A DNA stretch of 64,000 nucleotides, from contig JBHPEY010000001.1 of assembly GCA_042576705.1 (NCBI GenBank), positions 72,980 through 136,979 of the forward strand, written 5' to 3'. The translations under genes and the position numbers were made by a program. The notes beneath the pieces were generated by a model. It searched no databases and was not told the origin of the DNA. It worked only from the letters and a program-made list of their open reading frames with translations. Source of the DNA: Nanobdellota archaeon. Lineage in GTDB: Archaea > Nanobdellota > Nanobdellia > Woesearchaeales > UBA11576. Shown here in pieces: positions 16,905 to 35,270 of the stretch (positions within the stretch are counted from its first letter, which is position 1; each line of letters starts with the position of its first letter).

Positions 16905-16918
16905 GACGTTCACCTATA

Positions 16919-17677: not shown

Positions 17678-17678
17678 T

Positions 17679-20600
17679 TTATGCACTCGTACATTTACAG
17701 GTCTGTGCTTTGGTCGGGCAAGCGCTGAGAAGCAGCGAGCAGACCTTCTGATTATCACCCTTATTGCAGTCATGGATGTTATTGATCCCGTCGCAGACCA
17801 GTTTCTTGAACTCAGCAGAAGTCTTGCTGGTGCAGAACTTCCTGTTATCCCTTGAAGACCAGACATAACACTCACCATCTTCAAGGCCATACACAGGATA
17901 GTAAAGCCCCTGCTCACCACAACTGCCCTTCAGTCTAACATCCACTCTATGGTAGACTGTGACACCATAATCATTCAATATATCGCTCGCAGGCGACCCC
18001 AGATACTCTCCCCTAAAACAACCAAGTGGAAGAGCTAAACCGCTCCAGCCGATACTAATCTTGCCTGACTTGAAGCATTCCTGCACCAATGCCTTGAATT
18101 CCCCGTTTGAAATACATCCAAACACACATTTGGACCCCACAACCTTATTGCAATAATACTTTTTCATCTCATAAGATGACAACGGTTTACAATCACTGGT
18201 ATCTGTTGTCAAACCGGGAACGCAATATCTGTTGCTTGGACATGGCTCAAGGATGGGCGTGCCTGTGGGAGATTTTTTCTGGACAGACTTATACAAGGTA
18301 GTCCCTCCCTTAAATACGCCAGAGGGTATGCTCGTAACCCCCGCACCACAATTGCCTGTAATCACTTCATCAGGCTTCCCCGGAATACAGCAGACATCAT
18401 TGATCGCCTTGCATGGCCTGAAAAAGTCGTCCTTAGCAGACTCTTGAAATACATCCAAAACAGTACCCTGGGCACATTCATTAGTATCTGAAACGCATCT
18501 GTACATAGTCTGTAGAGGCGGTCCGCAAGAATCAACAGGCGTCCTGGGAGTACAGCAGGCCAGGTAGGATTCCTTGCAGGGTATGAAATCGCCACCAGGG
18601 TATTGTGATGGATTCTTAACTGAATTCTCTGTACAATCATCAATATCTGCTACGCAACTGAGTTGCTCGTGCATGAGTCCGCAAGGTGCTCCAACACCTG
18701 TCGCGGTTCCTCCGCCACCAGGACTGGCACCGGGCGGTCCACCGACACCCGCGGGCTTGGGCGGGGGCTTTGGCTTTCCTGATCCGTCGATGCAGCACTG
18801 ATTTCCTGTTGGGCAGAGACCTGCGGGTTCTTTGGTAAACGCTGTTGTCGAACCCTTGCACGTGCCTCCTGTCCCAACGCAGAATGTGTCCTCATTAGGA
18901 GGCAGTTTTACGCTATTTCCATTGGCGTTCTCTGCCATCACATGTTTCAGGCTGCACTTGCTGAAGCAGTACATGCCTGTGTCTGCCTGGCCTGCCTTGT
19001 AGCACTCGCCCTCGGTGTTCTTGACTATCGTGCATCTTGCTCCTGCTGCCTTGCCGGCGCACGCCTTTGAAGCAGCCACCGTTGTATCAAGCTTGCTTAT
19101 CTGGAGCAGTGTGCTCTGCATCGCAGGAAGCTTGAAGATGATGCTGTCACCTCCCAACAAGACAAGACAGCCTGTGGGCGATGCAGGACACTGGAGAAAT
19201 GCTCCTGCTACTCCGCTCAGCTGTATTGCAGTGTCGGACTTTGTCCTGACCCCCATCGGCAGGACATCAACCTTCAACTCGACCATCTCTCCTGCTGCCT
19301 GGCCTGTCACCTCGACATAGAAATTGATTGATGAGCTACCCATTGTAGCATCTATACCTGTGATGGTCACTTTGGCATCGCTGCTCAGCCCGGACGCAGT
19401 CACGCCATACAATGAGGGCTGGCTTGCAGAGAGTATTATCGTCTTGCCTTTGGCATCTCCAAGGCCGGATACAGCATAGGCTGCAGTGGCTGTCAGTCCA
19501 TATACATGGATCTTCTTGGCATCTTCTGAACCGAGCGTCTTTATTATGAGAATGTTCGCATCAGGGATGTGCACATAACATTCCCTCTTTGTCGGGTGGT
19601 AATTGCCTTTCACAGTCGGTCCTGCTGACTTGGTGGTTTTCTGAGGCGTGGCTCCAGTTCCTGTCGGGACGACTGTCGAGGCACCCGGCGGGCAGCAAAG
19701 GACGTATTTAGAATCGTCCTCATTACACAGCTCCTTCTTGCATCCCTTTGCAGAAGAGCATTTATCCAGGTCCTGTCCTGTGCATGCAGCAGTCATGTCC
19801 TGGCATGTGTTTCCCGTCGTATTAGCATCACACTCCTTGCCGTCAGACTTTATCTGTATCGCCATGCCTGTTATCTTCGGAATCTGAGGCTCTGCTTTAC
19901 CAGATGCTGGAAGGTATCTTGACTCTGAGTGGATGTCTGTCACGGCTTTCCCAAATATCCCTGTCGCGCCAAGGCATTCGTCCATCCCTACGTCGTCTAC
20001 ACTTATCCCGGAAGGCTTGCCTGAAAAGCCCAGACCGGACAGGTTGAATCCTATAGTGACGCCAGGCTCAAGGAATGAACCGGGATCTGTGGAAAACTCT
20101 ATATCGAAACCGTCCTCGTTCTGAACATAATTATTCAGGACAACCTTCTTGAGTGGTGTCGGATCGCCGGGTATCGGGTTGTGCAGGCGTATCTGACCAC
20201 TGCTGCCGACAGGACTGTCATATGTAAGCTGCAGACCCCCTACAGGCATTGCAGCGACACCTGTCGCGCTGTCGAAACCTGAGAAGGTGAAGACAGGGTC
20301 CTGCCTGTTCAGCTTCAGCCTTATCACGCGTTCGTTGATGCTTGCGTAAGGCGTGGTGATGCATGGAGGCACGCCGCAGGTCGGCATATCCTCTCCATTC
20401 TTCTTTATCGTGAACTGGGAGTCAGGTATGAGACCGATCTTGTCCAGGCCTATGTTGAGTATACCATAGTCTGCTTCAGGGTTTATTGTTATCTTGAATC
20501 CATTGGACCTGTCATTCGGGTCTATCCAGGCGAAGTCAGTCACACTTATCTTATCTTCAGGACCAAGGCTGTTCGCGTCTGCCCAGAGGCCGAAGGTCTT

Positions 20601-23600
20601 GTTGTACCCGTCATTCTCCTGCCTAACTACCGCTGTCCTGTATGTCAGTTCTTCTATCGATCCTTCCGACGCTGCCTTTGTCCCTGATGCGCCGCATATC
20701 ACCTTGAACTTTATCTCCTTCTTCTGCAGCTGGTTGGTATCATAATCCACAAGAGGCCCTGATGCCATCTGGTAGTAGCCAGCGACTGAATCTGCGTCGC
20801 GCAGTTCAAGGTTCATGATCCAGGTCTCAGGGTCTTTGGCGCAGTTTGACGAACTCATCGTCGAGGTCGGCGGCTTGTATTGCATACCCACGACCTGCTT
20901 CTTTTCCACTGCCTTTCCAGGGCTTCCGCCGGCGGTCGTGACCCTGCCCTTGTTCTTGATAAAATCCTTGAGCACAGTGAACTTTATGCCGTAACAGGTC
21001 ACCTGCTGGTCCATTGCAGGCTCAGCAACCGGCTGTTTTTCGCAATTTGTGAATGACTTGCCGGTAAAGACGTATTTCCCATCCTTATCAGGCACTGCTT
21101 TCTCATAGGAGAAGAATGGCTTGGCTGACGTGCCGTCTGCCGTAGGATCAAAATATATACGTATCTGGAAAACAGATGACGAACCGACCTCTGCGCAGTT
21201 AAACTGAGGACGCGAGACGACGACCTGGCCAGGTATCGACTCAACACCAGGAACCCCCTCTGGAGTGCATGAGCCAGGTGCCTGCTTGCCGAAATGCTCT
21301 GACTTTATCTCAAACTCACCATTCTCCTTGACATGCTGCGGGAAGCTGTTGACATCGAACACACTGAAGTCATGGATCGTGTCCTGGTTCAGCCGCTCAC
21401 CGACAGTCTTCTTGCCTGCCGGCGGGTATATGACAGCGCTCTGGCCGTTCTTTATCGATGTTATCACAAGATATTTCGTGAATTCACAATCAGTGGTGCA
21501 GGAAGCCGCGTCCTTTGGCAGCAGCTGCTGCACCTTCACGTTGACTATATTATTATCACCAATGCCGAACGGCTGGTTCTCAGGCTTGGTAAGCTTTTCT
21601 GAAAGGAAAGCCGCGCTTCCTGTCGGTGGTATCTCCACACCACACTTGAAAGAGAGTGAGGGAATCTGGAACTCGCAAAGGCCCATAGGTGGTCCGCCAA
21701 TCTCGCGCACAGTGCCTTCACCCCTGCCCTGCAGGGATGTTGCAGTCGCCATGGTCCCGCCGAAGCCTGCTGTGTTTGTGGTGCCTGATGTACCTCCGGC
21801 ACTTTGGCTCACAGAACCTCCATAGCCACTAGTACCTGTCTGAGTAAGAGGCCTGTACTCCACGACAGCCTTGTCATACCTGAGCGGACCCTGTACTCCT
21901 TCGACGACAAAAAGCACCTCGTCAGTGCAGAACTGTCCCTGCCTTATGTCACCACTCTCAGGGCAGTTGCCGCTCTGGTGGCGCATTATCGGAAGCTGGA
22001 CCTGCCTGTTCCGTGAAGTGTAGTCTGCAAAAGTGCCATGGGCGCAGTCGCACTTTCCATCCTTTCCTCCTGGACAGATGCCGTTCGAGCATTCAAGCTT
22101 CAGGTCGAAATGCATGTCAGACCCTGCGAACACGCTGTAACCCACCCTGTAGACATGCCTTGCAAAGCCTGTCTGGGGATCATATGCCTGCCATCTCCTT
22201 GTGACCGGGGAGACAAATATCGTGCTGTTGACAGGCAGGTATGCTGCTGTCTCAAACAGCTGGCTAAAGTCAGTCGGCCATTCACCAGTAAACATGAATA
22301 TGCACGCGTCATGCAAAAGGTTCTCTGCAGCGAACGCTGTCGCGAAAAGGTTCCGGTCGCCGTATCTTGACTGCGCCTCTGTTGTTATGCTTGCGCTCGC
22401 GTCGGCGACAGCAGAGAAGACTCCGCTTATACCACCTATACCTATCCTCGCAGCAGACTTGCCTCCAAGCCTCTGCGTTATGCAGCTTATCGCCTCCTTT
22501 ATCAGGTCGCATATGTACTGGCTTATCAGCGCCTGGCACTGGCCTGCGCTTCCGTCGCCGGTGACGAGGATCGTCTGGAAGCACTGCTGCAACAGCGTGA
22601 GCATGTTACGCAGCTGCACAACCCAGCTCAGTATGCCTGAAAGGCAGAGCGTGACCACTGATTGTATGAAGCTACCTGCAGGCTGAGCAAGGTACTGACG
22701 GCCAGGCTCTCCGAGAAGTCCGGTTATCTGACGATACCAGTGCTCGAAATTCGTGGGCGTGGGTTTCCTCTTGGTCTTGCCGACCCGCATCTCTATCTTG
22801 CCTTCAGCAATCTGCTTCTCTATATCCTTCCTGAACTCCTTGAGATTGGAATCAAACTCTTTTTTCGCATCAGCACCTTCTTTCTCCTGGCTGATGTCTG
22901 CATTGTTCAGGACAGGAAACCATTCATTAAGGTTTTTTGACTGCGGGATGAAATACGCTCCTGTATTGATCTCCACCCTCCCGTCAGCCTGCACCTGGCC
23001 GAGATTCTTGACTTCGATCTTGGAATAGTATCCCCTGAAGACAGTCTTGGGACTTCCCTTCTCGTCTATATCGACGACATAGACAACATCATCACCTATC
23101 ATCTGCTCTGCAGACTTCGGATAGCCCTTGACCCATTTCAGGTTGTCAAGCACCACTGGCTGCGCCTTGGGCTTTGCACCCTTGGGCTGGCAGATCCCTG
23201 TGACGCCGCGCAGTATCGTCTGGCCTGCGCCGCACTTGCTCTTGTCCTCGGGATTCGCGAGGCAATAAGACATCTTGAGCTCATTGCTCCACATCATACC
23301 CCAGCCCCACTCCTGCATGTACTCGAACGGGCAGCAGGCAGGCTGCGGAACATGGCCTTCTGCACATACTTCCTTTGCCCGAGCATTGGTCTCGTAGGTA
23401 TTGTACATCTCCCTGACAGGTCCACTGCCGAGCTCTACGAACGCGCAGTCAGACTTTGCGTTCTTGTAGGGGGGTTTTTTCCAGATATTTTTCTCATAAT
23501 TGACAACATTACTGTAGTCTATCCTGGATGACGTGGTTGCAGCAGGCTTTGCACTTGAACTCTTGGTGGCTGCTGCCAATCCTGTTATCAGGGGAACCGT

Positions 23601-26600
23601 GTCTGTTCCAGGACCTGGTTGAGGAAGGGATGATGATTCTGAGTTGATGTCTGTTATTGCTTTGCCTGTAGGGCTGACACGCATAGGCAGGCATTCACCG
23701 AACTCGGTATCACAGTACTGACCTACGGTGCAGACATTGTTGCCACAGGTGCATTTCCCCTCTGTCAACTTCTTGTCCATTGAATCATGCGCGTTCTTGC
23801 AATTCCCGCCCGACTGCTCACACCCGGTGCCTCCGCACACCCATACTGCTGTATTTGTCGATGCCTCACAGGTCTGACTCCCGCACTTGCAGGCCTCGTT
23901 TATCTTCTGGTTCTGCACAGACCCTTTAGTATCGAACACAGGGCATATATTTGTCTTACCAGCAGCTCCCTCGCTCTCGCTCTCGCCAGGCCCTCGCCAG
24001 GGAGTCTTCTTGCCACTTGCCCAGTTGGACTTTATGTAATGCTGGAATGAAGGGACGCTCGGGCACATCACCCTGTCGCAGAACAGGTGCCACTTGTCTG
24101 TAATTGTCCGCTCCTTCTCAATCCATCTTGCGCAGTCCTTGCAGGCGCGGTTTGCAGCTTCCATGCCCTCCTGATTCTTAGGGTCCTTCGGGTCATCCTT
24201 AGGGAATTCAACATCACAGGCTCCACCTGCCTGGCCATTGTCCATCCCTGCGACCTTCTCTATCATGCCGTTACTTATCTCCTTAGCCATATTCACAATT
24301 CCCTTGAAAAGTCCTCCTGAAGTGAGCTTCGACAGCGCGCCGCTCCACTTGCAGTTGTATCCCTTCATGAAGCCGGCAATGTATTTCGCGAGGTAAGTGA
24401 TAAGACATATCCCCAGGGTAACCTGCGTCACATACTTGAGAGGGGTCTCAATCATGTCAAGGAAAGCCAATGTCGCGTTTATGACCTCCAGCGACGCCTC
24501 AAGAAGGCTCTTCACGAACGCGCTGCTCGCGAAATCAACCCTCTCGTCGAGCATTATATTGACATTCAGGCACTGCTTCTGGATCTGGACAGGCTGGGTC
24601 GTGCCCGGCGCCTGGCTGCTGTACTGCGCCATGAAAGGGCCAGGGTCAGAAACTATCTGCATCTCAAGCAGCAGGTGGATGCAGCCTGCAAGAGGGTAGC
24701 ATTCCCCTTTCCTGTGGTTGCTGAGGTTCTTCTCCTTCTCAAGATAGGTCGTGCCGTTGGCATCAGCAGTCATGGGAATGAAGTTTATCATGACAAAGCC
24801 CTTGGTGCAGTTGCCTTTCTTGCACATCACACGAGGCTCGCCGGCGAGCCAGTCAAAATCATAATTCTCACGCTCTTTTGCCCCTACAGTCGCCTTGACG
24901 ACGCGGACATCCTGCGCCTTTGCCTTGGATGCGTCACCACCACCGACCCATGTGAGATCAAAACCGAATCCATACGCAGCGATGCCTTCCAAGAGCTCAC
25001 GCGTGTTTATCTGGCTGCCACCTTCCTTGAGCTGGACAGTCCAGTAGGACGTGGTCCCGCAAGGGGTGTATGATAAAGAACCCTCGACAGGAGTTGACTG
25101 CCTGCCATATACGTCGACAAAGACCAGCTTCACCTTGGTCGGGGTGCTTCCTGTGCCGCCTGTGGTGCTTATGCCAGATACAGAGGCTGACGTCTCTGCT
25201 GTCGTGGTCCCTGCGCCGCCGCTCATGGCAGAGCTGATCGCTGCGACCACGCTCGTCGCAAGGTCCACCTCTATCTCAAACGTGCCGTTCTCACCTATAT
25301 TGATCTTCTCATCAGGCTCGCCTGCAGCTGCAGTGGTCGCGGTGCCCAGCTCGCCCGCGCTTATGCTGGCTGCGCTCTGATCCACCCAAACCCATATCTC
25401 GCCGGCATTCTTGTTCACCTGGCCTGAGATCAGGATCGAACTGGTATAGGAAGGTGAATAAAAAGAGACAAGCTCGGCAGAACTCGGGCTGATGATCTGC
25501 GGGTCCACGCTGTCATACTGCATGGTCAAGGTCTCCTCGAACTTGTTGCCTGCCTCGTCCACAAACTCCAGCCGGACATTGTTCGACCCGTTGAACAGGC
25601 CTGTAACAGTCTCTGTGAACTCTATGGTATGGTTCGCAGTCGTCGTGTAGGTCTTTGTCAGCACAAGACCAGGATAAGGAGGGGTTATCTTCGAGATTGC
25701 AGGCGCGGTCACATTGCCTGCGCCTGTGGTCACTGAGAATGGCGATGATTTCGCGCCTTCATTCCCTGCGTCATCGATGGCACTGACCGTGTATGTATAC
25801 GTCGTCTGGCTGCTCACGTTCTGGTCTTCGTAGTCCGTGACTGTTGACTCTGCGTATGCTATCGGGCCGTCAGGCACGTCAGACCTGTATACCAGATACT
25901 TGTATATCTCAGTCTCGTTCGCAGGGGCAACCCAGGATATCTTTATCGAACTGTCTGTCACGCTTGTGTTCATGACTTCAGTAGGGGCGACCGGGCCGGT
26001 GGTATCGTCGACAGACTGCAGATATATATAGAGCGTAACTTTCGTGTCATCAGTCACGTTCCCCTTGATCTGGATCGACTGCTCGGTCGAGACAGTCAGG
26101 TTCAGCGTCTCGTTATCGAAATGAACTTCAGGAGAGTGATAGTCAAGAAGGAGCCTGTCCTCACAGACGATGTCAGCAGATACCTTGTCTGACGCCACGA
26201 TCCTGATCGAGTTCTCGCTATGCTGGGCGTCCAGGTCCATCCCTGTAAAACTGAACTCACCTGAAGACGTGATGCGCTTGTAGCGCACCCTCTCGCCGTT
26301 TATATAGGCAGTCACATCAGCCCCAGGTGATGATGTCCCCATGGCATCATACCTGTTGCTGTTCGCATAGTCTGCTGTCGATGCGCTGCAGTCCAGGCCA
26401 TCCACGTTCAGGAAAAGGTCCACCTTCTGCGAGGTCTGGACTGTCGTGACAGATGAGTTCCCGCAGTTGCCGGTCAGGTCGCAGGACTCTGCCATCAATG
26501 TATAATTATAATTCTCATCAAGCCCTGTCAGGGTGATGTTGTGCTGGGTGACATCCTCAGCAACCTCTTTCTTCAGGTCAAGCAGCAGCGGGTTCTTCCC

Positions 26601-27398
26601 GTACTTGACCCTTGTCTGGCTCGCGATATTCGTCGTCCATGTCACATAGATGTTCGTGCCGATGGACTCTGCCTCGAAATTGCCGACTGCAATCGGCTGG
26701 TAGTCAGCTGACTGCGTGTTTGCCTGCACAGAGGTGTTCCCCCCCATGTTTCCAGAGGTGTCGACAGCACTGACTTTCAATGTGTATTCAGTAGAGTTAT
26801 CCAGACCTGAAAACACATATGATGTCTGCTTGACACTGCCAGAGACAAGCGCACCATCCTTGAAGACCATATAATAGTCAAGGTCATCGTCAGAAGGCGC
26901 GATCCAGCTTATGGTAATGGAATCCTGGGTTATCGTCGGCGCAGCAAGACCTGTCACAACACCCGGAGCAGCGTGGTCATACGGAGCGTCTGTAGTGAAT
27001 GAGTGAAAATTCCCGATGTCAATAGGATCCCTCACAGTTCCTAAGTCACCCGACGCAGATATATAGAAATTGAACAATGCGCTTGAAGCGATCGTCGTGA
27101 TCGTGATCGAGTGGCTCGTGCCGCTCACCCCGCTTGACTCCTGCTCATCCACATCATCTACAGCACCATAGAATACCCTGCCTGTAGACTCCTCATCAGT
27201 CGTCCATTGTATAGTCGCAGAATTGTCTGTGACAGTGACGTCGGTTGCTGGATCGAACGTGACCACCATTGCATTCGCTGAGTAGACCGGCATGAGGACT
27301 ATGAGCCATATCATGAAAAAAGCGATTCTGCACAGTTTAGGGCTATTCTTGCTCGGTTCCATATCAGATAACTTCCTCATCCTCTCCTGTATACTCAT
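17679..27398 (-). CDS. Giant (about 3230 aa) secreted protein: FN3/Ig-like repeats, Cys-patterned helical domain, beta-rich region, C-terminal Cys-rich repeats
   Basis: 9.7 kb open frame; signal peptide ...FFMIWLIVLMPVYSANA; FN3 motifs (SITISW...Y.V.KDG...LDNSTEY..KVSAVD.SGN; SIKISW...YLVYRS...YTYTVSAID.AGN). True start may be 27380 or 27362 (the latter directly after the upstream TGA). Confidence 0.92.
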   Translation of the reverse strand: MSIQERMRKLSDMEPSKNSPKLCRIAFFMIWLIVLMPVYSANAMVVTFDPATDVTVTDNSATIQWTTDEESTGRVFYGAVDDVDEQESSGVSGTSHSITITTIASSALFNFYISASGDLGTVRDPIDIGNFHSFTTDAPYDHAAPGVVTGLAAPTITQDSITISWIAPSDDDLDYYMVFKDGALVSGSVKQTSYVFSGLDNSTEYTLKVSAVDTSGNMGGNTSVQANTQSADYQPIAVGNFEAESIGTNIYVTWTTNIASQTRVKYGKNPLLLDLKKEVAEDVTQHNITLTGLDENYNYTLMAESCDLTGNCGNSSVTTVQTSQKVDLFLNVDGLDCSASTADYANSNRYDAMGTSSPGADVTAYINGERVRYKRITSSGEFSFTGMDLDAQHSENSIRIVASDKVSADIVCEDRLLLDYHSPEVHFDNETLNLTVSTEQSIQIKGNVTDDTKVTLYIYLQSVDDTTGPVAPTEVMNTSVTDSSIKISWVAPANETEIYKYLVYRSDVPDGPIAYAESTVTDYEDQNVSSQTTYTYTVSAIDDAGNEGAKSSPFSVTTGAGNVTAPAISKITPPYPGLVLTKTYTTTANHTIEFTETVTGLFNGSNNVRLEFVDEAGNKFEETLTMQYDSVDPQIISPSSAELVSFYSPSYTSSILISGQVNKNAGEIWVWVDQSAASISAGELGTATTAAAGEPDEKINIGENGTFEIEVDLATSVVAAISSAMSGGAGTTTAETSASVSGISTTGGTGSTPTKVKLVFVDVYGRQSTPVEGSLSYTPCGTTSYWTVQLKEGGSQINTRELLEGIAAYGFGFDLTWVGGGDASKAKAQDVRVVKATVGAKERENYDFDWLAGEPRVMCKKGNCTKGFVMINFIPMTADANGTTYLEKEKNLSNHRKGECYPLAGCIHLLLEMQIVSDPGPFMAQYSSQAPGTTQPVQIQKQCLNVNIMLDERVDFASSAFVKSLLEASLEVINATLAFLDMIETPLKYVTQVTLGICLITYLAKYIAGFMKGYNCKWSGALSKLTSGGLFKGIVNMAKEISNGMIEKVAGMDNGQAGGACDVEFPKDDPKDPKNQEGMEAANRACKDCARWIEKERTITDKWHLFCDRVMCPSVPSFQHYIKSNWASGKKTPWRGPGESESEGAAGKTNICPVFDTKGSVQNQKINEACKCGSQTCEASTNTAVWVCGGTGCEQSGGNCKNAHDSMDKKLTEGKCTCGNNVCTVGQYCDTEFGECLPMRVSPTGKAITDINSESSSLPQPGPGTDTVPLITGLAAATKSSSAKPAATTSSRIDYSNVVNYEKNIWKKPPYKNAKSDCAFVELGSGPVREMYNTYETNARAKEVCAEGHVPQPACCPFEYMQEWGWGMMWSNELKMSYCLANPEDKSKCGAGQTILRGVTGICQPKGAKPKAQPVVLDNLKWVKGYPKSAEQMIGDDVVYVVDIDEKGSPKTVFRGYYSKIEVKNLGQVQADGRVEINTGAYFIPQSKNLNEWFPVLNNADISQEKEGADAKKEFDSNLKEFRKDIEKQIAEGKIEMRVGKTKRKPTPTNFEHWYRQITGLLGEPGRQYLAQPAGSFIQSVVTLCLSGILSWVVQLRNMLTLLQQCFQTILVTGDGSAGQCQALISQYICDLIKEAISCITQRLGGKSAARIGIGGISGVFSAVADASASITTEAQSRYGDRNLFATAFAAENLLHDACIFMFTGEWPTDFSQLFETAAYLPVNSTIFVSPVTRRWQAYDPQTGFARHVYRVGYSVFAGSDMHFDLKLECSNGICPGGKDGKCDCAHGTFADYTSRNRQVQLPIMRHQSGNCPESGDIRQGQFCTDEVLFVVEGVQGPLRYDKAVVEYRPLTQTGTSGYGGSVSQSAGGTSGTTNTAGFGGTMATATSLQGRGEGTVREIGGPPMGLCEFQIPSLSFKCGVEIPPTGSAAFLSEKLTKPENQPFGIGDNNIVNVKVQQLLPKDAASCTTDCEFTKYLVITSIKNGQSAVIYPPAGKKTVGERLNQDTIHDFSVFDVNSFPQHVKENGEFEIKSEHFGKQAPGSCTPEGVPGVESIPGQVVVSRPQFNCAEVGSSSVFQIRIYFDPTADGTSAKPFFSYEKAVPDKDGKYVFTGKSFTNCEKQPVAEPAMDQQVTCYGIKFTVLKDFIKNKGRVTTAGGSPGKAVEKKQVVGMQYKPPTSTMSSSNCAKDPETWIMNLELRDADSVAGYYQMASGPLVDYDTNQLQKKEIKFKVICGASGTKAASEGSIEELTYRTAVVRQENDGYNKTFGLWADANSLGPEDKISVTDFAWIDPNDRSNGFKITINPEADYGILNIGLDKIGLIPDSQFTIKKNGEDMPTCGVPPCITTPYASINERVIRLKLNRQDPVFTFSGFDSATGVAAMPVGGLQLTYDSPVGSSGQIRLHNPIPGDPTPLKKVVLNNYVQNEDGFDIEFSTDPGSFLEPGVTIGFNLSGLGFSGKPSGISVDDVGMDECLGATGIFGKAVTDIHSESRYLPASGKAEPQIPKITGMAIQIKSDGKECDANTTGNTCQDMTAACTGQDLDKCSSAKGCKKELCNEDDSKYVLCCPPGASTVVPTGTGATPQKTTKSAGPTVKGNYHPTKRECYVHIPDANILIIKTLGSEDAKKIHVYGLTATAAYAVSGLGDAKGKTIILSASQPSLYGVTASGLSSDAKVTITGIDATMGSSSINFYVEVTGQAAGEMVELKVDVLPMGVRTKSDTAIQLSGVAGAFLQCPASPTGCLVLLGGDSIIFKLPAMQSTLLQISKLDTTVAASKACAGKAAGARCTIVKNTEGECYKAGQADTGMYCFSKCSLKHVMAENANGNSVKLPPNEDTFCVGTGGTCKGSTTAFTKEPAGLCPTGNQCCIDGSGKPKPPPKPAGVGGPPGASPGGGGTATGVGAPCGLMHEQLSCVADIDDCTENSVKNPSQYPGGDFIPCKESYLACCTPRTPVDSCGPPLQTMYRCVSDTNECAQGTVLDVFQESAKDDFFRPCKAINDVCCIPGKPDEVITGNCGAGVTSIPSGVFKGGTTLYKSVQKKSPTGTPILEPCPSNRYCVPGLTTDTSDCKPLSSYEMKKYYCNKVVGSKCVFGCISNGEFKALVQECFKSGKISIGWSGLALPLGCFRGEYLGSPASDILNDYGVTVYHRVDVRLKGSCGEQGLYYPVYGLEDGECYVWSSRDNRKFCTSKTSAEFKKLVCDGINNIHDCNKGDNQKVCSLLLSACPTKAQTCKCTSA

Positions 27399-29442
27399 CA
27401 GAGCGTATAAGCTCAGGTACAGCCTCAGGCATGATCGACCTGTTGACCATCAGCTCATAGACAGCCATTATCTCTTCTTGGGTCTTTGGCGGGGGGTATT
27501 TCTGCGGGACATGGAAGACGACCTTTTCCGCGTCGAGCATGTCCTCCATCTTGACAGACCACTCACCCATCCATCCACCTATCATAACATCATCCTCTGC
27601 GCCTTTCTGGAGCAGCATTATGTTCAGGTCGTAGGTCGCGTCTGCCCTGAGCAGCTCGAACTCCTGCGTGTTGTTGAACATCTCGCTCCTGTCGAACACG
27701 TCGAACACAGCCAGAGGAGGATCCCTGCTCTCGAGCTGTATTATCGCATACATGTCCTTCTCAAGCATCCTGTAAGAGCCAGGCGCGTTCTGCGGATGGC
27801 GCTTGACATCGAACTTGACAGACTGCGTCGGGAACATGTCTATGAAGAACGGGTCATCGATCCCGTAATGCTGCTTCTCTGTCTCGAGATAGCCGGGCTT
27901 GTCCGCGATGATGATAGGCCCCACGCAGCCATCAGGGAATTTCCCAGACCACTGCAGATGGCGGTTGTTCGACCTTGTGCTGCCCAGGTGACATGACTCC
28001 CTCAGACAGCGGAATGTAATGTTCACCCTTGTAAGCTCAGCGTTCGTGACAGCATCCCTCGCTATTATCGTGTGATCATCTCCGGATGTAAATTCGCAGA
28101 AGTCCATCTCGAACTCAGCGGGCTCGATTATCACCGTCGGCATGAGGCTGCGGTCAGGCTCGTTATGAAAGATCTGCACAGGGAATGCGTAGCGGAAGAC
28201 AAAGCCTGTCCTGTGGAACGCCTCGGGGTCGTTGATGTTCATCATGACAGGGTATGTGAGGTCATAGACGAAGTGGTAGGTCTTCAGGCAGAGGAAAGAG
28301 AGTATCTTCGATTTCAGGTCCTGCACACCAGCCTTCAGCACGCCGTGCTGGTTAGGCGTCGCGAGGAGACGCATGCCCCACTCAGTCTTGTAGGTCGACA
28401 TGACCTTCAGGTCCTTGTAGTCCTCGTCAGTGAACCGGAAATAATACTGGAACCAATCATAGGAATCATCAGGTATGTTCTTGGGAAGGTTCATCGGCGG
28501 CAGTGATGTTATCTTACCGTCCTTGTTCTTCTTCGCCACGATCGTGTTGACGCTCTTGGACTGCTCAACAGCTCTGTGAATTGCTTCGTACACATCATCC
28601 TTCTCCTTGAAAGGCGGGTGGTCTGTGTTCTGGAACCTTGTCGCCGCGACAGCAGATGGCAAAGCCCTGTTCAGCTTCTTCTTGATGTCTGAAAGCAGCC
28701 AGATCTTCTTCTCGCAGTCGAGCGAGAGTCCTGTGAAAGGGATATCATCTGAGGGGTGCGAGGCCATGAGGTTGAGGGTCATGTTCTCATAGAACGTCCG
28801 CTGGTTCTCTGCCTCAAGGATCTCTTTCGCCAGCTCCCACATGCGCTTGAACTTGACGTCAAGCTTGACGACAAACTCTTCCCTGCTCGTGACCTCACCG
28901 CTGCCTTTCGGCTGGATGTCTATCCTGTACTTCAGCTTTATCAGGGTGTCCTTGTCAGCGAACATGACATCTGTCGTGTAATTGCTCAGCTCTGTGATGT
29001 CATATTCATCACGCATCTCAGCGAAGTCGTTGAGGCAGTACGCCAGGTTGATGTTGACATACTCCTGGACCTGGTGCTCTATATATTCTATGCTCGGTAT
29101 GCGGGTCTTTCCCTCATAATACCAGAAAGGGACCTTTGGCGAGAACTCCCCGCCGACACCAGGAGCCAATGCGAGATGCCTTGTGGGGTTGAATGCCAGC
29201 TCCGGCGGGACAGATATGTAACCGCCCTGATCACCCATGGCGCGTATCGCCTCGGTGGCTGTCTTGTCTATGCACGCATCGATGAACTGCACCACAGGAG
29301 GCGCCTTTGGCTGGAGCATCTTGGCGGGCGAGACGCCCTGCGACCTCACGTAACTGTAGATGCCCACAGAGAAGATTATTATTATACCTATGATTATGAA
29401 TATCGTGATCTGCGCTTTCCGGTTGTTTGGAAATAGATCCAT
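27364..29442 (-). CDS. Large prepilin-like (class III signal peptide) protein, paralog 2
   Basis: MDLFPNNRKA/QITIFIIIGIIIIF; start moved to ATG 29442; colinear similarity to 35258-37450. Confidence 0.85.
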   Translation of the reverse strand: MDLFPNNRKAQITIFIIIGIIIIFSVGIYSYVRSQGVSPAKMLQPKAPPVVQFIDACIDKTATEAIRAMGDQGGYISVPPELAFNPTRHLALAPGVGGEFSPKVPFWYYEGKTRIPSIEYIEHQVQEYVNINLAYCLNDFAEMRDEYDITELSNYTTDVMFADKDTLIKLKYRIDIQPKGSGEVTSREEFVVKLDVKFKRMWELAKEILEAENQRTFYENMTLNLMASHPSDDIPFTGLSLDCEKKIWLLSDIKKKLNRALPSAVAATRFQNTDHPPFKEKDDVYEAIHRAVEQSKSVNTIVAKKNKDGKITSLPPMNLPKNIPDDSYDWFQYYFRFTDEDYKDLKVMSTYKTEWGMRLLATPNQHGVLKAGVQDLKSKILSFLCLKTYHFVYDLTYPVMMNINDPEAFHRTGFVFRYAFPVQIFHNEPDRSLMPTVIIEPAEFEMDFCEFTSGDDHTIIARDAVTNAELTRVNITFRCLRESCHLGSTRSNNRHLQWSGKFPDGCVGPIIIADKPGYLETEKQHYGIDDPFFIDMFPTQSVKFDVKRHPQNAPGSYRMLEKDMYAIIQLESRDPPLAVFDVFDRSEMFNNTQEFELLRADATYDLNIMLLQKGAEDDVMIGGWMGEWSVKMEDMLDAEKVVFHVPQKYPPPKTQEEIMAVYELMVNRSIMPEAVPELIRSDEYTGEDEEVI

Positions 29443-29443
29443 G

Positions 29444-30316
29444 TTACCTCTTTTTATTTGATGTCTTCTTGTTCCTGCCCTTGATTGTCCCTGTTCCATC
29501 CTTTGCCATCGTCGCGATCAACCTCAGGTAATAGAACCTGAGCCATGAAAAATAACCGACCAGCAGGATGGTCGAGATTATCGTGAAGACAACCATGTTC
29601 CCTGCCAACAGGAAGATGAACTGGATGAGATTTATGATCACAAGGATGATGATAGAGAACAGCAATGGGATGAGAAACCTTCCGAAACCCCTGATGCCTG
29701 TCTGGTACAGTCCCTTCACAGCGCCGCGCAGGGTCTTCCTCCTGACAAGGTGCGTGAAGATATTTATCGAGAACCAAAACAGCGCAAAGAAAACTACTGC
29801 AAGGATGACGATGCTAAGCACCCCGCTCACAGCACTCACATCCATATTCCTGCCGAAAGTCAGGAACGTGATGAACTGCAGGACCATGAAGATGATGAAC
29901 GACACGATGCCCCACAATATCGACATGACGACAAACCTCCAATACACTCCCCAGGCAAACCCTGTCTTCAATAATGTGTCGTATATCCTGTTCTTGATGA
30001 ATGTCCACACTGCAATGATGAAAAGTATCAGCAGCACAGTCGAGAAAAAGAACGTGCCCAGCACCTTGGCCATGACCTGATCACTTATGGGCGTGCCGAA
30101 TGACGACGCGTAATCCCCGAAGCTCTCCATCTGTGTCCTCAGCCCGCTGATATCATCGTCAAGCGACATGATGCTCCTGTTCCATGTGAAACCGCCTATC
30201 ACGAGCAGGGCTATGAGCAGGAACTCAAGCAGCACGACGTAAAGCAGTCTCCGGTCTATCCTGATGAAGGACTCCTTCAAAAGTCTCCAGTGTCCAGAAA
30301 CAATAGCTAAACACAT
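29444..30316 (-). CDS. Multi-pass membrane protein with basic C-terminal tail
   Basis: About 6 hydrophobic segments; stop 1 nt before the next ATG. Confidence 0.8.
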   Translation of the reverse strand: MCLAIVSGHWRLLKESFIRIDRRLLYVVLLEFLLIALLVIGGFTWNRSIMSLDDDISGLRTQMESFGDYASSFGTPISDQVMAKVLGTFFFSTVLLILFIIAVWTFIKNRIYDTLLKTGFAWGVYWRFVVMSILWGIVSFIIFMVLQFITFLTFGRNMDVSAVSGVLSIVILAVVFFALFWFSINIFTHLVRRKTLRGAVKGLYQTGIRGFGRFLIPLLFSIIILVIINLIQFIFLLAGNMVVFTIISTILLVGYFSWLRFYYLRLIATMAKDGTGTIKGRNKKTSNKKR

Positions 30317-30338
30317 TTTGCGTCAATCCATATATCCT

Positions 30339-31796
30339 TCAAGGCGAAAGCCCTGGTGTCGTTGTTGCAGCGCCTGGAGCGCCTGTTGTCGCACCCGGCG
30401 CCGTGATTATAGGTGTAGGAACGATAGGAGCAGTCGGAAGCAAAGAAGGCCCATCCTCATCCGCAAACTGCTGGTACTCGCGCTCGTAACCAGCGACTAT
30501 CGTCTGACAGATAGGATTGTCCTCTTCGTCAAACATGCCGCCGAATACAGCGTGGACCTGGTCAAAGTTGAGGAACTTGATACAGATGGTATCATACACC
30601 TGCGGGGTCTCAAAATAAAACATGTTCGCTCCTGCAAGGCTCAGCTTCTCACCTGCCTCCAGCTCTATCTCACCATACGTACCGTAGATGTTATAGATCT
30701 CCTCATCAAGGTATATGATGAACTCCATAGGACCCTCACCGGCGCTTATCTCTCCGGATATCTTGTAAGCATAATATGGGTCACAGCTCGCGTTCTCGTA
30801 TCTTCCCAGGACACTCAGACAAGGGTCTATATACACACGCTCGCCTTCCATGTGCGCGAAGCTCCTTCCTGAAGGGGATGTTATGAAACCCCTTGACCCT
30901 GCGAGGTTAGGATCATAGAGATGCCTGTCATCACAGTAATCCTCAGCCCACCTGTTTATCGTCAGGTCCATGCCGAAATCAGACGTGCTGTCAGCACCTT
31001 CACCGAACCATGACGATCCCAGTGTATAGAAACTGCTCGAGAAAGCGCCTCCAAAGATGAAATTGAACCAGCCACCTGAAGCATAGACCTGGTTGGCTAT
31101 GTTAGGCCAGTTAAAACCGCTCTTGAACTCGGCTGCTTTTGGGTCCACAGGTGTTGTCTTTTTGCCACCTGTTTCGCTCTTCTGGGTACGAACAGATTCC
31201 TCGGCAGCTTTAGCATCTGCAGGTCCAGCTTTAGTTTGCGCATCTCTGATATTTTGTGCAAACTCTGCGTCAACCTTGCTTGACTCTCCATTAGTTGGAG
31301 TGAGAAAAACCCCTTCATCACCCCTATCGTCGACTGTCCACGTCACCCCGCCCCGCTTGTATTCGCCCGGGCCTGTGCGTGTGTAGATGTCACCATCCAA
31401 ACTGAAACTGATGGGTTTAGCAGGGGCGGTGGGAGCAGCGGGAGCAGCAGTGGAACCAGGAGCAGCAGAAGAACCCTCTTTTTTCTGTTTTGGATTATTA
31501 GTATCAGCGGGAGCAGCACCAGCTGAAGAATCTGGCGAAGAACCTGCCGCGGCAGGTTGTTGAGGGGAAGTTTGCTCAGCTTGCTTGGTCAGTTCAGAAC
31601 TCAGAGAAGAATCAGTCACTTCACTATCGTAAATACCTTGGCGCCACCACTTTCCATTTTTATATATATAATTATCCAACTCACGCCCTTCCGCAATCTC
31701 AGCATCTACAATATAAGACTGCTGCAAAGTTAGGAACATGCAAATGACTATGCAACTGATAATCTTCAGGATCGTGTCTTGATTCTTCTTATCCAT
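30339..31796 (-). CDS. Secreted or anchored protein with P/A/S-rich linker, internal aromatic-Gly hydrophobic segment and P/T-rich tail
   Basis: N-terminal ILKIISCIVICMFLTL; PAAPTAPAKP linker; GGWFNFIFGGAFSSSFYTLGSSWFG segment. Confidence 0.8.
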   Translation of the reverse strand: MDKKNQDTILKIISCIVICMFLTLQQSYIVDAEIAEGRELDNYIYKNGKWWRQGIYDSEVTDSSLSSELTKQAEQTSPQQPAAAGSSPDSSAGAAPADTNNPKQKKEGSSAAPGSTAAPAAPTAPAKPISFSLDGDIYTRTGPGEYKRGGVTWTVDDRGDEGVFLTPTNGESSKVDAEFAQNIRDAQTKAGPADAKAAEESVRTQKSETGGKKTTPVDPKAAEFKSGFNWPNIANQVYASGGWFNFIFGGAFSSSFYTLGSSWFGEGADSTSDFGMDLTINRWAEDYCDDRHLYDPNLAGSRGFITSPSGRSFAHMEGERVYIDPCLSVLGRYENASCDPYYAYKISGEISAGEGPMEFIIYLDEEIYNIYGTYGEIELEAGEKLSLAGANMFYFETPQVYDTICIKFLNFDQVHAVFGGMFDEEDNPICQTIVAGYEREYQQFADEDGPSLLPTAPIVPTPIITAPGATTGAPGAATTTPGLSP

Positions 31797-31820
31797 CTTA
31801 AATCATCTATCTCAATATAA

Positions 31821-34800
31821 TCATGTCGTAGGTGTTTCGGGAGTCGTCTCTGTTGTGGTCGCGCTTGCGGCCTCTGATTCTGCTTCTGTCTCATCCATGT
31901 CTGTCGCGAATCCCAGGTTCGCGTAGCTCGGGTCATCCTTCAGTGCCTCTTCGCAATAATCGAATGAGATGTCCTTGAACCTGTCAGCAGTGTTCTCCAC
32001 GAGATCAGTGACCAGCGCCGCCAGTGACAGCGCATACATGGCAACCATGCATGCCTTGCAGCCCCAGAAAGCAGGGTTGCCGCATATGCCGAGCGTACAG
32101 CCCTTGTCCATGACAAGCCCCAATACAAACGACGCAGGCTGTTTCACAATCCGGTTAAGGACCAGGCCTATCTGCTCGATATACTGCGTTATGGGAAGCG
32201 CAGCGAATATCTGGCCGGTAGCCCAGGTGCACATCTCATAATCATACTGCTTATCGCACTGCCATTTCGGCCTTCCCTGTGCGGCATCTATCTTCAGGCA
32301 GAGCAGTTTCTTGCACTTGATCTGCCTGTACTTCTCAATGTTCATCAATATACCTGGAAGACATGCTGAACCTGCGCTGGTTATGATACTCCTCGTAGGG
32401 TCAAAATCATCCACTGAGAAGATGGTCAATCCTTCTGTCACGTCCTCCATCCCTTTCCTTTCTTCCACAGTGACGGTCATACCCAGCGACTTGGACAAGG
32501 CCCTATTTGCAGCAGCAAGATTAATATACTCAGCCCAGAAACCATTCCACTTCGCCCACGTCTTCTTGACAGTGCACCAGCCGGTCTTCTTAGGGCAGTT
32601 CGCTACCATGGCCTTCTTCGCGTTCTTTGTCAGCCTGCAGGATATGAAAAGGCCGCACATGAAATACAGCTCACCCATCATGTCCTTAGTAGCGTCTGCA
32701 AGCGCTGCTGTTGTCTGGCCTGCAGTCTGGGAGGCCTTGCAGCCACCAGGCCCAACCACTTTTGCGTTGCACACAGTGGTGAATATCTCCTTGAGGCCTG
32801 CCCACATGGTCATCAGAGACATATACATCTCGATGAAACGGCACATCTCACGGGCGTAAGCCAGTATCATATTGGTATAATGCACAACATCGTCTATCGT
32901 CTGATCCACATCCTTCTCAAGCTGCGCTATCTCATCATTTATGTTGCCTATGTTCTGGCCAAGAGGATTGTTGTAGACAGGTATCGGGAATGAGACATTG
33001 ACCCCTTCAGGCAGTGTCAAAGCCTTTCCTGTGGTTGAGGTCACGATTGACTGCATATAGAATGTGCAGTTCACATAGACCTCATCGACAGAGACATTGC
33101 CCCCTGATCCATCTATCATGTAATATTCAGGCACAGAGCCTGGGTTCAGTGCTATCACAAAGATATCCTGGGTCGATCCGGATCTGAAGTCGCCGAAGCC
33201 CATCAGCCCAACCTCAAACTCGCTGGTGACAGTGTCCTGGTTCACCCAGTCAAGACCTACGCAATCCATCGGATCAAGATTAATCGAAGTGACGCCCAGC
33301 ACACCGCCATATGAATACATGTTGAGCCTGTAATACATCCTGTGGTTGCCGATGCCCCAGCTCAACCGGTCGATGCCGCTCGAAGGGGAAAAGCTGTCCA
33401 CAGCAATCATCCATCTCGTGGCTGAGACATTCTCCTTCTCGAGGATCTCTATGTTGCTCCATGTATATGTATAAGAATGATTTGTGTAATCATAGAATGT
33501 GAAAGGTATCTTCAGTCCGCTCAGGTATCCCCTCATCAACGGCTCACTGGGAGACCACTTGCACTCGAAGATGCGCTGATCCATCTCAGCAGGGTCGATA
33601 TGATTCTCCGTGCAGACTCCTTCTTCAGCCCACTCACCGTTCTCTATGACATGTGACAGGTTCGCGACAGCCTTTGATATGCCTGAATGGTCCTTGACAA
33701 ACAACGTGATCTCCAGCATATCACCTGAGCTCAGGTTTGTCATCTGTCCAGACTCGCCGAGGCCAGTCATGTTGGAATGCGCAAGAAGCGCCGCATCTAT
33801 CTCAGGGGGATCGCGGTCAACCTTGAAATTGCCGTGAGGGACAGGGACTGCGAACAGGTTCTTGGCATCATCCATCGAGCCTGCCATCGGCCTCAGGTAA
33901 AGGGACGTCCCGCTGCTCTTGTCAGTGCCGACCCAATCCCAGAAACAGTTCCAGTCTGGCACGCAGCTGTTGGGATGCATGACTCCGGCGACAGACCCTC
34001 CCTCGATCGGCTGGGCACCGAATGACGCGAAGTCAAGGAACAGCTTACGGTACGCCATGCCTGAATCAGCCTCTACAATACTGGCGGTTATCCTGTTGTT
34101 CTCTTCAGCAACCCAGTAATTGCCCTTATCATCGACGTAACTTGAGTATATCTTGGTGACCACAGGCCGGGTGCTGTCAAAGGTCATCGGGACAGGTGTG
34201 ATCTCATCCAACCTGTTGCCATTGTCATCCTTTGCATAGATCCTCGCAGAGATCGTCTTGGGAGAGCTCATCACCACGAATATCGGGCCGACAGTGCAGA
34301 TGTAGGGTGTGCTGCCTGTGCATTGCGCTGTCATGTTACCAAAGATGGGCTCATGCTCAGGACGCTCACTGAGCCCTGACGCGTTCACGAAGACATCCAG
34401 CAAGTCACCGTCCTCTGAGATATTGAACTCGAGCAGGACATTGCCTATTGTCTCGCCGTTGGTGTATATGACATTTTTTCCGGTCAGGTCAACAATACGG
34501 ATACCAGAGACCACAGGAGGCCTGGCATCTACATTGACATCCGTGCATTCAGTGCTGCTCTGGCCGAGCAGGTCAGTCATCTCGATACAAACCCTCTTTG
34601 ACTCAACCTCTCCTGCGACGACAAGGCCTGTGAGGTTGACCTCCCCATCGAACTCGCATCCTGAAGGGAAGCTATTATTCTGCCCCACGGGCAATCCTGC
34701 CACTGTGAACCTGATGCTCGACATGCCCACGCAGATGTTGTTGCACGCAGACTTATCACATGATTCATCCTTGATATCAAACGCAGCAGTCACGACACCA

Positions 34801-35270
34801 TTCTCATGCGCGGTGTAGTCCACAGGACTCATCAGCTTGGGAGGCAGGTTATCGACAACCACAGATCCACTCTTCGGCGCTGCCAGCGGTGCCTGCGCAT
34901 CACTGAAGAGCCGCACAGTAAAACTGAATATGCCTCCTTTTGAAAGGGAGACCTCAGGATATTCCTTTATGCACTCGAACCTGCCAGCTATCTCTTCGGA
35001 AGGTGTGCAGTTGAAGGTAGCGCCAGGGTCCTCCACAAGACGGACCTGCGTCGGTTCCAGTATCGGGTCATCAGGCACCGTGGCTGTCACGTTTATCACT
35101 GTCGTGTCGGTCTGGCCGCGGAAGTGAGGGATGCCCTGGCCTCCCTGGACCACGACAGAATCGATGGACGCAGCCATGGCGTCAGCCGAATAGATCGGGA
35201 GAGTGACTACTAGGAATATCATGAACATTGCAATGTTTATCAGGTAGGTGTTTCTCCTCATTTTATCCAC
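31821..35270 (-). CDS. Large (1149 aa) secreted protein with Ig-like domains and C-terminal Cys-patterned helical domain
   Basis: Signal peptide ...IFLVVTLPIYSADAMAA; VDN.PP / VDARPP / FDSTRP / VDRDPP Ig junction motifs; C-terminal P..S.I.S....CL.GIL motif shared with the giant protein. Confidence 0.88.
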   Translation of the reverse strand: MDKMRRNTYLINIAMFMIFLVVTLPIYSADAMAASIDSVVVQGGQGIPHFRGQTDTTVINVTATVPDDPILEPTQVRLVEDPGATFNCTPSEEIAGRFECIKEYPEVSLSKGGIFSFTVRLFSDAQAPLAAPKSGSVVVDNLPPKLMSPVDYTAHENGVVTAAFDIKDESCDKSACNNICVGMSSIRFTVAGLPVGQNNSFPSGCEFDGEVNLTGLVVAGEVESKRVCIEMTDLLGQSSTECTDVNVDARPPVVSGIRIVDLTGKNVIYTNGETIGNVLLEFNISEDGDLLDVFVNASGLSERPEHEPIFGNMTAQCTGSTPYICTVGPIFVVMSSPKTISARIYAKDDNGNRLDEITPVPMTFDSTRPVVTKIYSSYVDDKGNYWVAEENNRITASIVEADSGMAYRKLFLDFASFGAQPIEGGSVAGVMHPNSCVPDWNCFWDWVGTDKSSGTSLYLRPMAGSMDDAKNLFAVPVPHGNFKVDRDPPEIDAALLAHSNMTGLGESGQMTNLSSGDMLEITLFVKDHSGISKAVANLSHVIENGEWAEEGVCTENHIDPAEMDQRIFECKWSPSEPLMRGYLSGLKIPFTFYDYTNHSYTYTWSNIEILEKENVSATRWMIAVDSFSPSSGIDRLSWGIGNHRMYYRLNMYSYGGVLGVTSINLDPMDCVGLDWVNQDTVTSEFEVGLMGFGDFRSGSTQDIFVIALNPGSVPEYYMIDGSGGNVSVDEVYVNCTFYMQSIVTSTTGKALTLPEGVNVSFPIPVYNNPLGQNIGNINDEIAQLEKDVDQTIDDVVHYTNMILAYAREMCRFIEMYMSLMTMWAGLKEIFTTVCNAKVVGPGGCKASQTAGQTTAALADATKDMMGELYFMCGLFISCRLTKNAKKAMVANCPKKTGWCTVKKTWAKWNGFWAEYINLAAANRALSKSLGMTVTVEERKGMEDVTEGLTIFSVDDFDPTRSIITSAGSACLPGILMNIEKYRQIKCKKLLCLKIDAAQGRPKWQCDKQYDYEMCTWATGQIFAALPITQYIEQIGLVLNRIVKQPASFVLGLVMDKGCTLGICGNPAFWGCKACMVAMYALSLAALVTDLVENTADRFKDISFDYCEEALKDDPSYANLGFATDMDETEAESEAASATTTETTPETPTT

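Follow-up and report, generated by a model that had tools for sequence, protein, structure and literature searches.

The present analysis concerns a window of 64,000 nucleotides from a Nanobdellota archaeon (contig JBHPEY010000001.1, positions 72,980 to 136,979; order Woesearchaeales) and a helical, cysteine-patterned domain carried by two large secreted proteins that are encoded in this window. The source genome has a size of 1.7 Mb and is 89% complete, and the closest relatives of the proteins in the window are labelled Candidatus Woesearchaeota. Both proteins belong to an operon of nine genes on the minus strand, which runs from 38448 to 15966 and encodes, in this order, a 333-aa (amino acid) membrane protein, a 736-aa protein with a class III (pilin-like) signal, the 1149-aa protein P0002, a protein denoted X, a 290-aa membrane protein, a 711-aa class III-signal protein, the giant protein P0001, a 252-aa protein and a 315-aa protein. 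The giant and its relatives are referred to as A type, and P0002 and its relatives as B type.

The two domain-bearing proteins and their shared core

The positions of the two proteins and of the parts of their helical domains are as follows.

17679..27398, minus strand: giant secreted protein P0001, 3239 aa, A type
24024..24611, minus strand: N part of the A-type helical domain (aa 930-1125), long helices with 8 invariant Cys, ending in the motif F-C-D-R-V-M-C-P
22722..24023, minus strand: insert inside the A-type domain (aa 1126-1559), a Cys-knot-like linker and an alpha/beta module
22497..22685, minus strand: shared core of P0001 (aa 1572-1634), 4 invariant Cys
22239..22496, minus strand: remaining C part of the A-type helical domain (aa 1635-1720), helices and a Gly-rich loop
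31821..35270, minus strand: P0002, 1149 aa, B type, secreted
31941..32963, minus strand: B-type helical Cys domain (aa 770-1110), 12 helices, 17 Cys in P0002, no N-glycosylation sequon
32217..32402, minus strand: shared core of P0002 (aa 957-1018), C-L-P-G-I-L...K-Y-R-Q-I...C...C...C...C

P0001 consists of a Sec-type signal, an fn3/immunoglobulin (Ig) region, the helical Cys domain with its large inserts, and a long Cys-rich C-terminal part; fn3 is the only Pfam match. Its relatives comprise 19 homologues of 1965-3695 aa in Woesearchaeota. P0002 consists of a Sec-type signal, a sequon-rich region of ~730 aa, the C-terminal helical Cys domain, and an acidic/Thr tail with no transmembrane (TM) anchor. 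P0001 likewise has no membrane anchor. The sequon-rich region is probably of Ig-like beta structure, and sub-threshold matches to Big_3_3 and Big_13 were found in relatives of P0002. The B-type domain is compact and C-terminal, and the A-type domain is split by the insert of ~430 residues, which is not found in B and is shorter in the relatives P0032 and P0033. The helices of the A-type N part are seen in the AlphaFold2 (AF2) model, and the N part of the B profile matches this part weakly and collinearly.

Conservation in both proteins is highest in the core, with 71-83% identity in the giant and 55-67% in B. In P0001, it is made up of a short helix, a C-L-S-G-I-L helix, a G-D-G-S loop and a second helix. 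The signature common to both types is C-[LIV]-[STP]-G-[IV], followed by a conserved R/K ~12 residues later and then by three more Cys.

The first-pass annotation had aligned the two core segments, and this alignment was located at P0001 1572-1634 against P0002 957-1018, where the quoted strings are present. Pairwise BLASTP of the two cores is insignificant (20.8 bits, E = 1.8), and BLASTP of the two whole proteins gives a significant match only in the signal peptides. The families were represented by 12 B sequences (P0002 and 11 relatives) and 18 A sequences, together with a deeper B alignment of 86 sequences. The hhalign comparison of the 12-sequence B alignment with the A alignment gave P = 9e-6 for the whole domains and 3e-7 for the C parts, and the 86-sequence alignment gave 5e-6 and 3e-7, respectively. 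The score was 48-54 with a probability of 83-93%, and the aligned columns were exactly the 62 of the first-pass alignment. When the A alignment was reversed, or its columns were locally shuffled 30 times, the maximum score was 20.1 (P ≥ 0.17), compared with 54.0 for the real alignment. A hidden Markov model (HMM) of the A core matched 12 of 12 B members at this same position, with 30 bits and E = 3e-10 for the best match in this database of 12, and the B HMM matched every A member at the core.

The strongest evidence for homology comes from four genomes of other orders in the same class, where one stretch of ~60 residues in a giant open reading frame is matched independently by both profiles (E = 3e-7 to 3e-6 for the B profile and 9e-10 to 1.5e-6 for the A profile). 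The joint alignment is graded from A through these other-order sequences to B. The proposed common core is thus borne out by the profile-profile comparison, the shuffle control, the reciprocal HMM matches and the other-order intermediates, and on these profile comparisons the two segments can be taken as demonstrated homologous copies of one undescribed domain. Homology of A and B over the whole domain is likely.

A chance or compositional likeness between Cys-containing hydrophobic helices, with no common origin, would agree with the pairwise E value of 1.8 and with the limitation of significance to ~62 columns, the flanks being without significant profile signal. However, the reversed and shuffled alignments fail to reproduce the score, the matches are reciprocal in every member and extend to sequences of other orders that both profiles recognise, and the two types have parallel gene contexts with co-diversified partners. 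This explanation, which was already disfavoured, is hardly credible.

Outside the core, the likeness was also said to include an upstream Cys motif and a downstream hydrophobic stretch. In several A members, the B HMM picks up the upstream motif, FC-x4-C, at collinear positions, although weakly (independent E value, iE, 0.017-0.37), and the hhalign P value for the A and B N parts is 0.075-0.5. The downstream hydrophobic stretches are indeed present in both proteins, but no profile aligns them with each other; that of the giant is Gly-rich and was modelled with a predicted local distance difference test score (pLDDT) below 50.

Regarding the distribution of the domain, a B-domain profile search of 1.84 billion representatives gave 1343 clusters at E ≤ 1e-3 and 544 at E ≤ 1e-30, and most of the listed matches are proteins of ~1000-1100 aa with the domain at the C-terminus. 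Within its own genome, P0002 770-1110 matches the family profile at E = 2e-132. The B domain is found in 187 and the A domain in 119 of the 301 sampled genomes of the phylum, and nearly all genomes with a domain belong to the order of the window; in other orders of the class, the matches are weak, confined to the core, and located in giants. The B type is near-universal in the order, with 1-3 copies per genome. Several genomes (e.g. G115, G145 and G264) have one or two in-frame stops (TGA, TAA or TAG) inside otherwise full-length B-domain matches, and these might reflect assembly errors, pseudogenes or recoding.

The AF2 model of the B domain, obtained with 86 sequences, is all-alpha with 12 helices (pLDDT 83.3; predicted template-modelling score, pTM, 0.77). 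Structural searches with this model gave nothing above noise: the best E value was 0.42 with Foldseek against PDB and 0.18 against BFVD, and the VIA fold search against 48,161 chains reached a best Z of 7.9, with a best Z of 6.3 at a second look. Swiss-Prot models and the ESM Atlas searched by shape contained no relevant match, and the top score of 0.80 in the ESM Atlas searched by features is at chance level. In the AFDB clusters, the matches were four uncharacterised family members only. The helical domain has no Pfam or NCBIfam family match, the names of the cluster members are uninformative, and the literature searched contained no description of the domain or its module. The domain represents an undescribed family, which Woesearchaeota use in a conserved surface module.

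Two further sequence similarities were noted in these proteins. The signal regions of P0001 and P0002 (window 27270-27350 and 35190-35260, minus strand) are alike (BLASTP 1e-5) and have a common P-[IV]-Y-S-A-[DN]-A-M end, which suggests a common export and cleavage route. The giant also has an internal repeat, aa 1232-1290 and 2470-2528 (phmmer iE 1.9e-6; window 23529-23705 and 19815-19991, minus strand), which surrounds a linker of the form ...T-D-I-x-S-E-S...I-T-G-[LM]-A... beside Cys-rich modules.

Pilin-like partner genes and the operon

The other genes of the operon are as follows.

37447..38448, minus strand: 333-aa membrane protein, first gene of the operon, with a basic N-tail, 5 TM helices and a Cys-containing C-end
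35258..37468, minus strand: 736-aa class III-signal (pilin-like) protein, 730 aa from the likely ATG; cognate partner gene of B
30339..31796, minus strand: X protein, 485 aa, with a signal peptide, an Ala/Pro/Ser linker and a conserved C-terminal domain with 5 Cys
29444..30316, minus strand: multi-pass membrane protein, 290 aa, 5-6 TM helices
27364..29499, minus strand: 711-aa class III-signal (pilin-like) protein, cognate partner gene of the giant
16919-17677, minus strand: 252-aa single-TM protein with 10 Cys, after the giant
15966-16913, minus strand: 315-aa multi-pass membrane protein, second gene after the giant

Each of the two domain genes lies directly next to a gene of the class III family, which comprises 76 proteins with a near-invariant K-A-Q-I-T-x-F N-terminus. 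The 3' end of the 736-aa gene overlaps the start of P0002, that of the 711-aa gene overlaps the start of P0001, and the two class III genes are paralogues (1e-44). The B gene abuts or overlaps a class III-family gene in 20 of 20 regions (20 genomes, at least 12 families), and all 10 A genes in view have a second, shorter class III paralogue immediately before them; the arrangement of a class III gene beside the domain gene is also found in the related loci L001 and L002. In the tree of class III proteins, a clade with all A-linked genes and a clade with all B-linked genes are each resolved with 100/100 support. The pair of pilin-like and helical-domain genes was probably duplicated once, early in the order, with each type keeping its own subfamily.

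Genes for a prepilin peptidase and a T2SSE-type ATPase are present elsewhere in the genome, and the operon contains no assembly ATPase or platform gene. A 2026 survey of archaeal type IV filament systems treats DPANN as poor in such loci (PMC13705601).

A third module is found on contig C5 of the same genome (locus L005 6821-13777, minus strand). Its products are a B paralogue of 1063 aa, a protein of 177 aa whose mature form has one Cys, a multi-pass membrane protein of 263 aa and, last, a class III paralogue, which matches the 736-aa protein at 4e-68 in BLASTP.

With the exception of the fn3-type matches in the giant, the operon proteins have no meaningful Pfam or NCBIfam match, and searches of PDB sequences with the domain and the operon proteins gave nothing relevant. 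A protein of the same kind as the 290-aa multi-pass protein is a conserved fourth member of the module; the 290-aa protein itself has a sub-threshold Pfam match to 60KD_IMP, the YidC/Oxa1-type insertase family (E = 8.5e-4, 19.8 bits against a cut-off of 35). The position of the 333-aa protein is occupied in L001 by a protein of ~313 aa. In L001, a 125-aa gene and a nucleotidyltransferase (NTP_transf_2/Polbeta) gene sit within the surface-protein cluster (17172-18159), at an insertion point flanked by the multi-pass gene and the second class III gene, and a separate nucleotidyltransferase/HepT-like pair lies upstream of the cluster (L001 3744-4369). The 252-aa protein has a Gln/Pro-rich N-tail, one TM helix and ten Cys that follow a loose D-x-C-[YF/I] repeat; in our reading it starts at M82 of the listed open reading frame, which puts its ATG 1 nt past the stop codon of the giant. 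Similar Cys repeats occur in a 433-aa protein on contig C5 (L005 5534-6835).

Glycosylation sites and cysteine parity

The distribution of N-glycosylation sequons was compared with that expected from composition in 112 B proteins. The helical domain contains 52 sequons, compared with 213 expected, and the N-terminal region contains 859, compared with 773 expected; the density is lower in the helical domain than in the N-terminal region in 106 of the 112 proteins. Within the window, sequons are enriched in the N-terminal region of P0002, the fn3/Ig region of P0001 and the class III ectodomain, and the helical domains of both proteins are without them. Because of this depletion, the helical domain is read as a buried or unglycosylated part.

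The B helical domain has 11 invariant or near-invariant Cys, and P0002, with 17 Cys, has all 13 conserved Cys columns. Gains and losses of the variable Cys are correlated pair by pair (r = 0.79-0.96), the pattern expected of disulfides. The first-pass description of the domain as helical and disulfide-stapled agrees with these correlated pairs and conserved Cys, with the all-alpha AF2 model, and with the even Cys counts of the flanking regions and of the partner proteins. The number of Cys in the B helical domain ranges from 11 to 19 in the 86-sequence alignment and is odd in 107 of 110 proteins. Even counts are the rule in the N-terminal region of B (107/110) and among the class III proteins (70/73). 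The homologues of X have an odd number of mature Cys in 13 of 13 cases, and for five more genes at the X position the count beyond residue 35 is likewise odd.

In three genomes of three families, the B protein is ~300 aa longer than usual (L035, L036 and L037). The Cys counts in the N-region, helical domain and tail of these proteins are 14/11/5, 12/11/5 and 12/11/9, so that the totals are even (30, 28 and 32). The X profile matches the extra tail in two of them (3.9e-16 for L036 and 1e-27 for L037), and the tail in L035 is probably a fused X as well, judged by parity. The simplest reading would be a single disulfide linking the B hub to X, intermolecular in the usual arrangement and intramolecular in the fusions. 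As a guess, the unpaired Cys of B could be the invariant, B-specific Cys at P0002 residue 986. B-B dimers, X-X dimers or a free thiol would be other ways to account for the odd counts.

The X profile also gives weak, positionally consistent matches 20-30 residues past the A helical domain in ~12 A members (iE 0.1-10). In P0001, the match lies at aa ~1740-1775 (window ~22074-22181, minus strand), and the hhalign comparison covers 21 columns at P = 0.015. An X-like module might be fused into the giant, which is not claimed here.

A proposed docking hub of the cell surface and its alternatives

On balance, we favour the reading that this undescribed domain serves a cell-surface complex as a buried hub for assembly or docking, with the proposed disulfide between B and X. 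The hub would seat a glycosylated arm on the class III-signal, pilin-like protein encoded directly beside the domain gene, and a B-type hub with exactly one unpaired Cys would form a disulfide with the single unpaired Cys of the downstream X. Protein-protein docking is favoured over membrane contact because of the gene context, the depletion of glycosylation sites and the Cys parity; the docking function itself is suggested by these features of the gene and protein sequences. A wider form of this reading, in which the domain is the covalent hub of an undescribed, order-wide DPANN surface apparatus, with Ig/fn3 arms on oversized pilin-like subunits and B locked to X, used for cell contact, is put forward only tentatively, as a doubtful extension.

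Several points weigh against the docking reading. Adjacency and co-duplication of the genes would equally fit a co-assembly in which the partners make no direct contact via the domain. The Cys count of the A helical domain is even (14 in 16 of 18 members and 18 in the other two), and because of this a covalent link would be specific to B. Parity was counted on related sequences and cannot tell which Cys is free, nor if the partner of B is X, another B or none. The AF2 model of the A domain is too poor (pLDDT 59, pTM 0.46) to serve for a fold search or for superposition on the B fold. In addition, some of the helices are of moderate hydrophobicity, their 19-residue windows reaching 1.94 in B and 1.78 in A, and peripheral membrane contact of the domain may still occur.

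A stronger membrane role follows from the membrane-inserting hairpins suggested at first pass: hidden hydrophobic hairpins would insert in the host's or the cell's own membrane and cause a pore, fusion or cargo translocation. An all-helical bundle, moderately hydrophobic helices (1.78 at P0001 1576-1594 and 1.94 at P0002 1073-1091) and a lineage thought to live on other cells are consistent with this role, and the helical pore-formers with a buried hydrophobic hairpin, such as the colicin pore domain, the Bcl-2 family and the diphtheria T domain, are likewise multi-helix bundles with some hydrophobic helices. However, the domain lacks a conserved TM-grade hairpin of the colicin or Bcl-2 type: the family-mean 19-residue hydropathy of B peaks at 1.37, compared with 2.2-3.25 for the real TM helices of the same operon, and just 11 of the 86 members have any window that reaches 2.0. 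The hydrophobic helix is not the same one in A and B, and the strongly hydrophobic core helix of the giant has a polar counterpart in B. The domain is also heavily stapled, and its 11-14 Cys would hinder the unfolding needed by such toxins. A TM anchor, as in class I-type fusion proteins, does not follow the domain, and P0002 ends in its acidic/Thr tail. Fold searches for toxins, fusogens and type IV secretion system parts gave no match in the PDB, BFVD and AlphaFold DB libraries, and neither protein has a Pfam/NCBIfam match to TraN/TraG, or any beyond fn3-type, a search that distant kinship could escape. The inserting hairpins are therefore not supported by hydropathy, C-terminal anchoring or structural likeness, and a membrane-active module is quite improbable. 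An adhesive possibility, that the helical domain itself binds a host ligand in the manner of Plasmodium DBL domains or trypanosome VSG bundles, gains from its extracellular location and from the use of Cys-stapled helical ectodomains as adhesins in other organisms. This role is even harder to accept, and highly improbable in our view, as the domain is the most conserved rather than the most variable part, is depleted in sequons like a buried part, lies opposite the free N-terminal arm in B, and is internal in the giant and in the fusion proteins.

Self-assembly into a lattice was also considered, in which B is the major envelope (canopy) glycoprotein of Woesearchaeales, the helical domain drives homo-oligomer or lattice contacts, and the class III protein is a membrane stalk, following the logic of the two-component SlaA/SlaB surface layer (S-layer). 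B is near-universal in the order, at 1-3 copies per genome, its conservation is roughly uniform along the whole protein with no hypervariable arm, its Ig-like region is sequon-rich with no C-terminal TM helix, and its unpaired Cys could equally form B-B dimers. A published description of MJ1_0160, a putative S-layer protein from Nanobdella aerobiophila, gives it 1000 aa, 5 Ig-like folds, no C-terminal TM helix and a weak similarity to NEQ300 of Nanoarchaeum equitans (bioRxiv 10.1101/2023.10.27.564410). By this description, these Nanobdellota candidates resemble B in build, as Sec-secreted glycoproteins of ~1000 aa with Ig-like folds and no C-terminal TM helix; the likeness is one of published description only, and the passages on MJ1_0160 and NEQ300 do not mention a Cys-rich helical end domain. 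The SlaA/SlaB system is similar in having a separate gene for a membrane-bound partner alongside, but SlaB has a C-terminal TM helix and a coiled coil, whereas the partner here has a prepilin-type N-terminus. The near-invariance of this N-terminus suggests pilus-type assembly, beyond the needs of a simple stalk, and the even Cys totals of the B-X fusions speak for a hetero-link rather than a homo-link. An S-layer role is regarded as rather unlikely, and the docking hub is retained as the preferred reading.

Among the known systems, the functionally closest to the proposed hub is the tip complex of PilY1/PilC with minor pilins in bacterial type IV pili, with GspK-I-J as its counterpart in type II secretion, although there is no homology. 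PilY1-type proteins are large, Sec-secreted non-pilin proteins encoded beside pilin-type genes, and a conserved domain is thought to seat their adhesive part on the pilin-like subunits. PilY1 docks by a C-terminal beta-propeller, whereas the domain here is all-alpha and disulfide-stapled, and so it is not of the PilY1 kind; the pilin-like partners here also differ in being archaeal proteins of 650-780 aa, with no ATPase or platform gene in the operon. The sugar-binding proteins of the Sulfolobales 'bindosome' are large globular proteins held by a pilin-type N-terminal helix, as is proposed for the 711-aa and 736-aa proteins, but they are solute-binding and have neither a docked giant partner nor a helical Cys domain.

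Woesearchaeota and their relatives are abundant, uncultured and thought to depend on other cells. Most of the order's sampled genomes have the domain, and it invariably belongs to a single conserved gene module. New here are the statistical link between A and B, including the sequences recognised by both profiles, the tree of the partner proteins, the depletion of sequons, and the argument from Cys parity and fusions. The strict even/odd bookkeeping of Cys is indirect evidence of extracellular disulfides in these archaea. The results offer testable ideas on the surface of this order: a docking hub for oversized pilin-like proteins, a candidate intermolecular disulfide, and natural fusions that support such a link.

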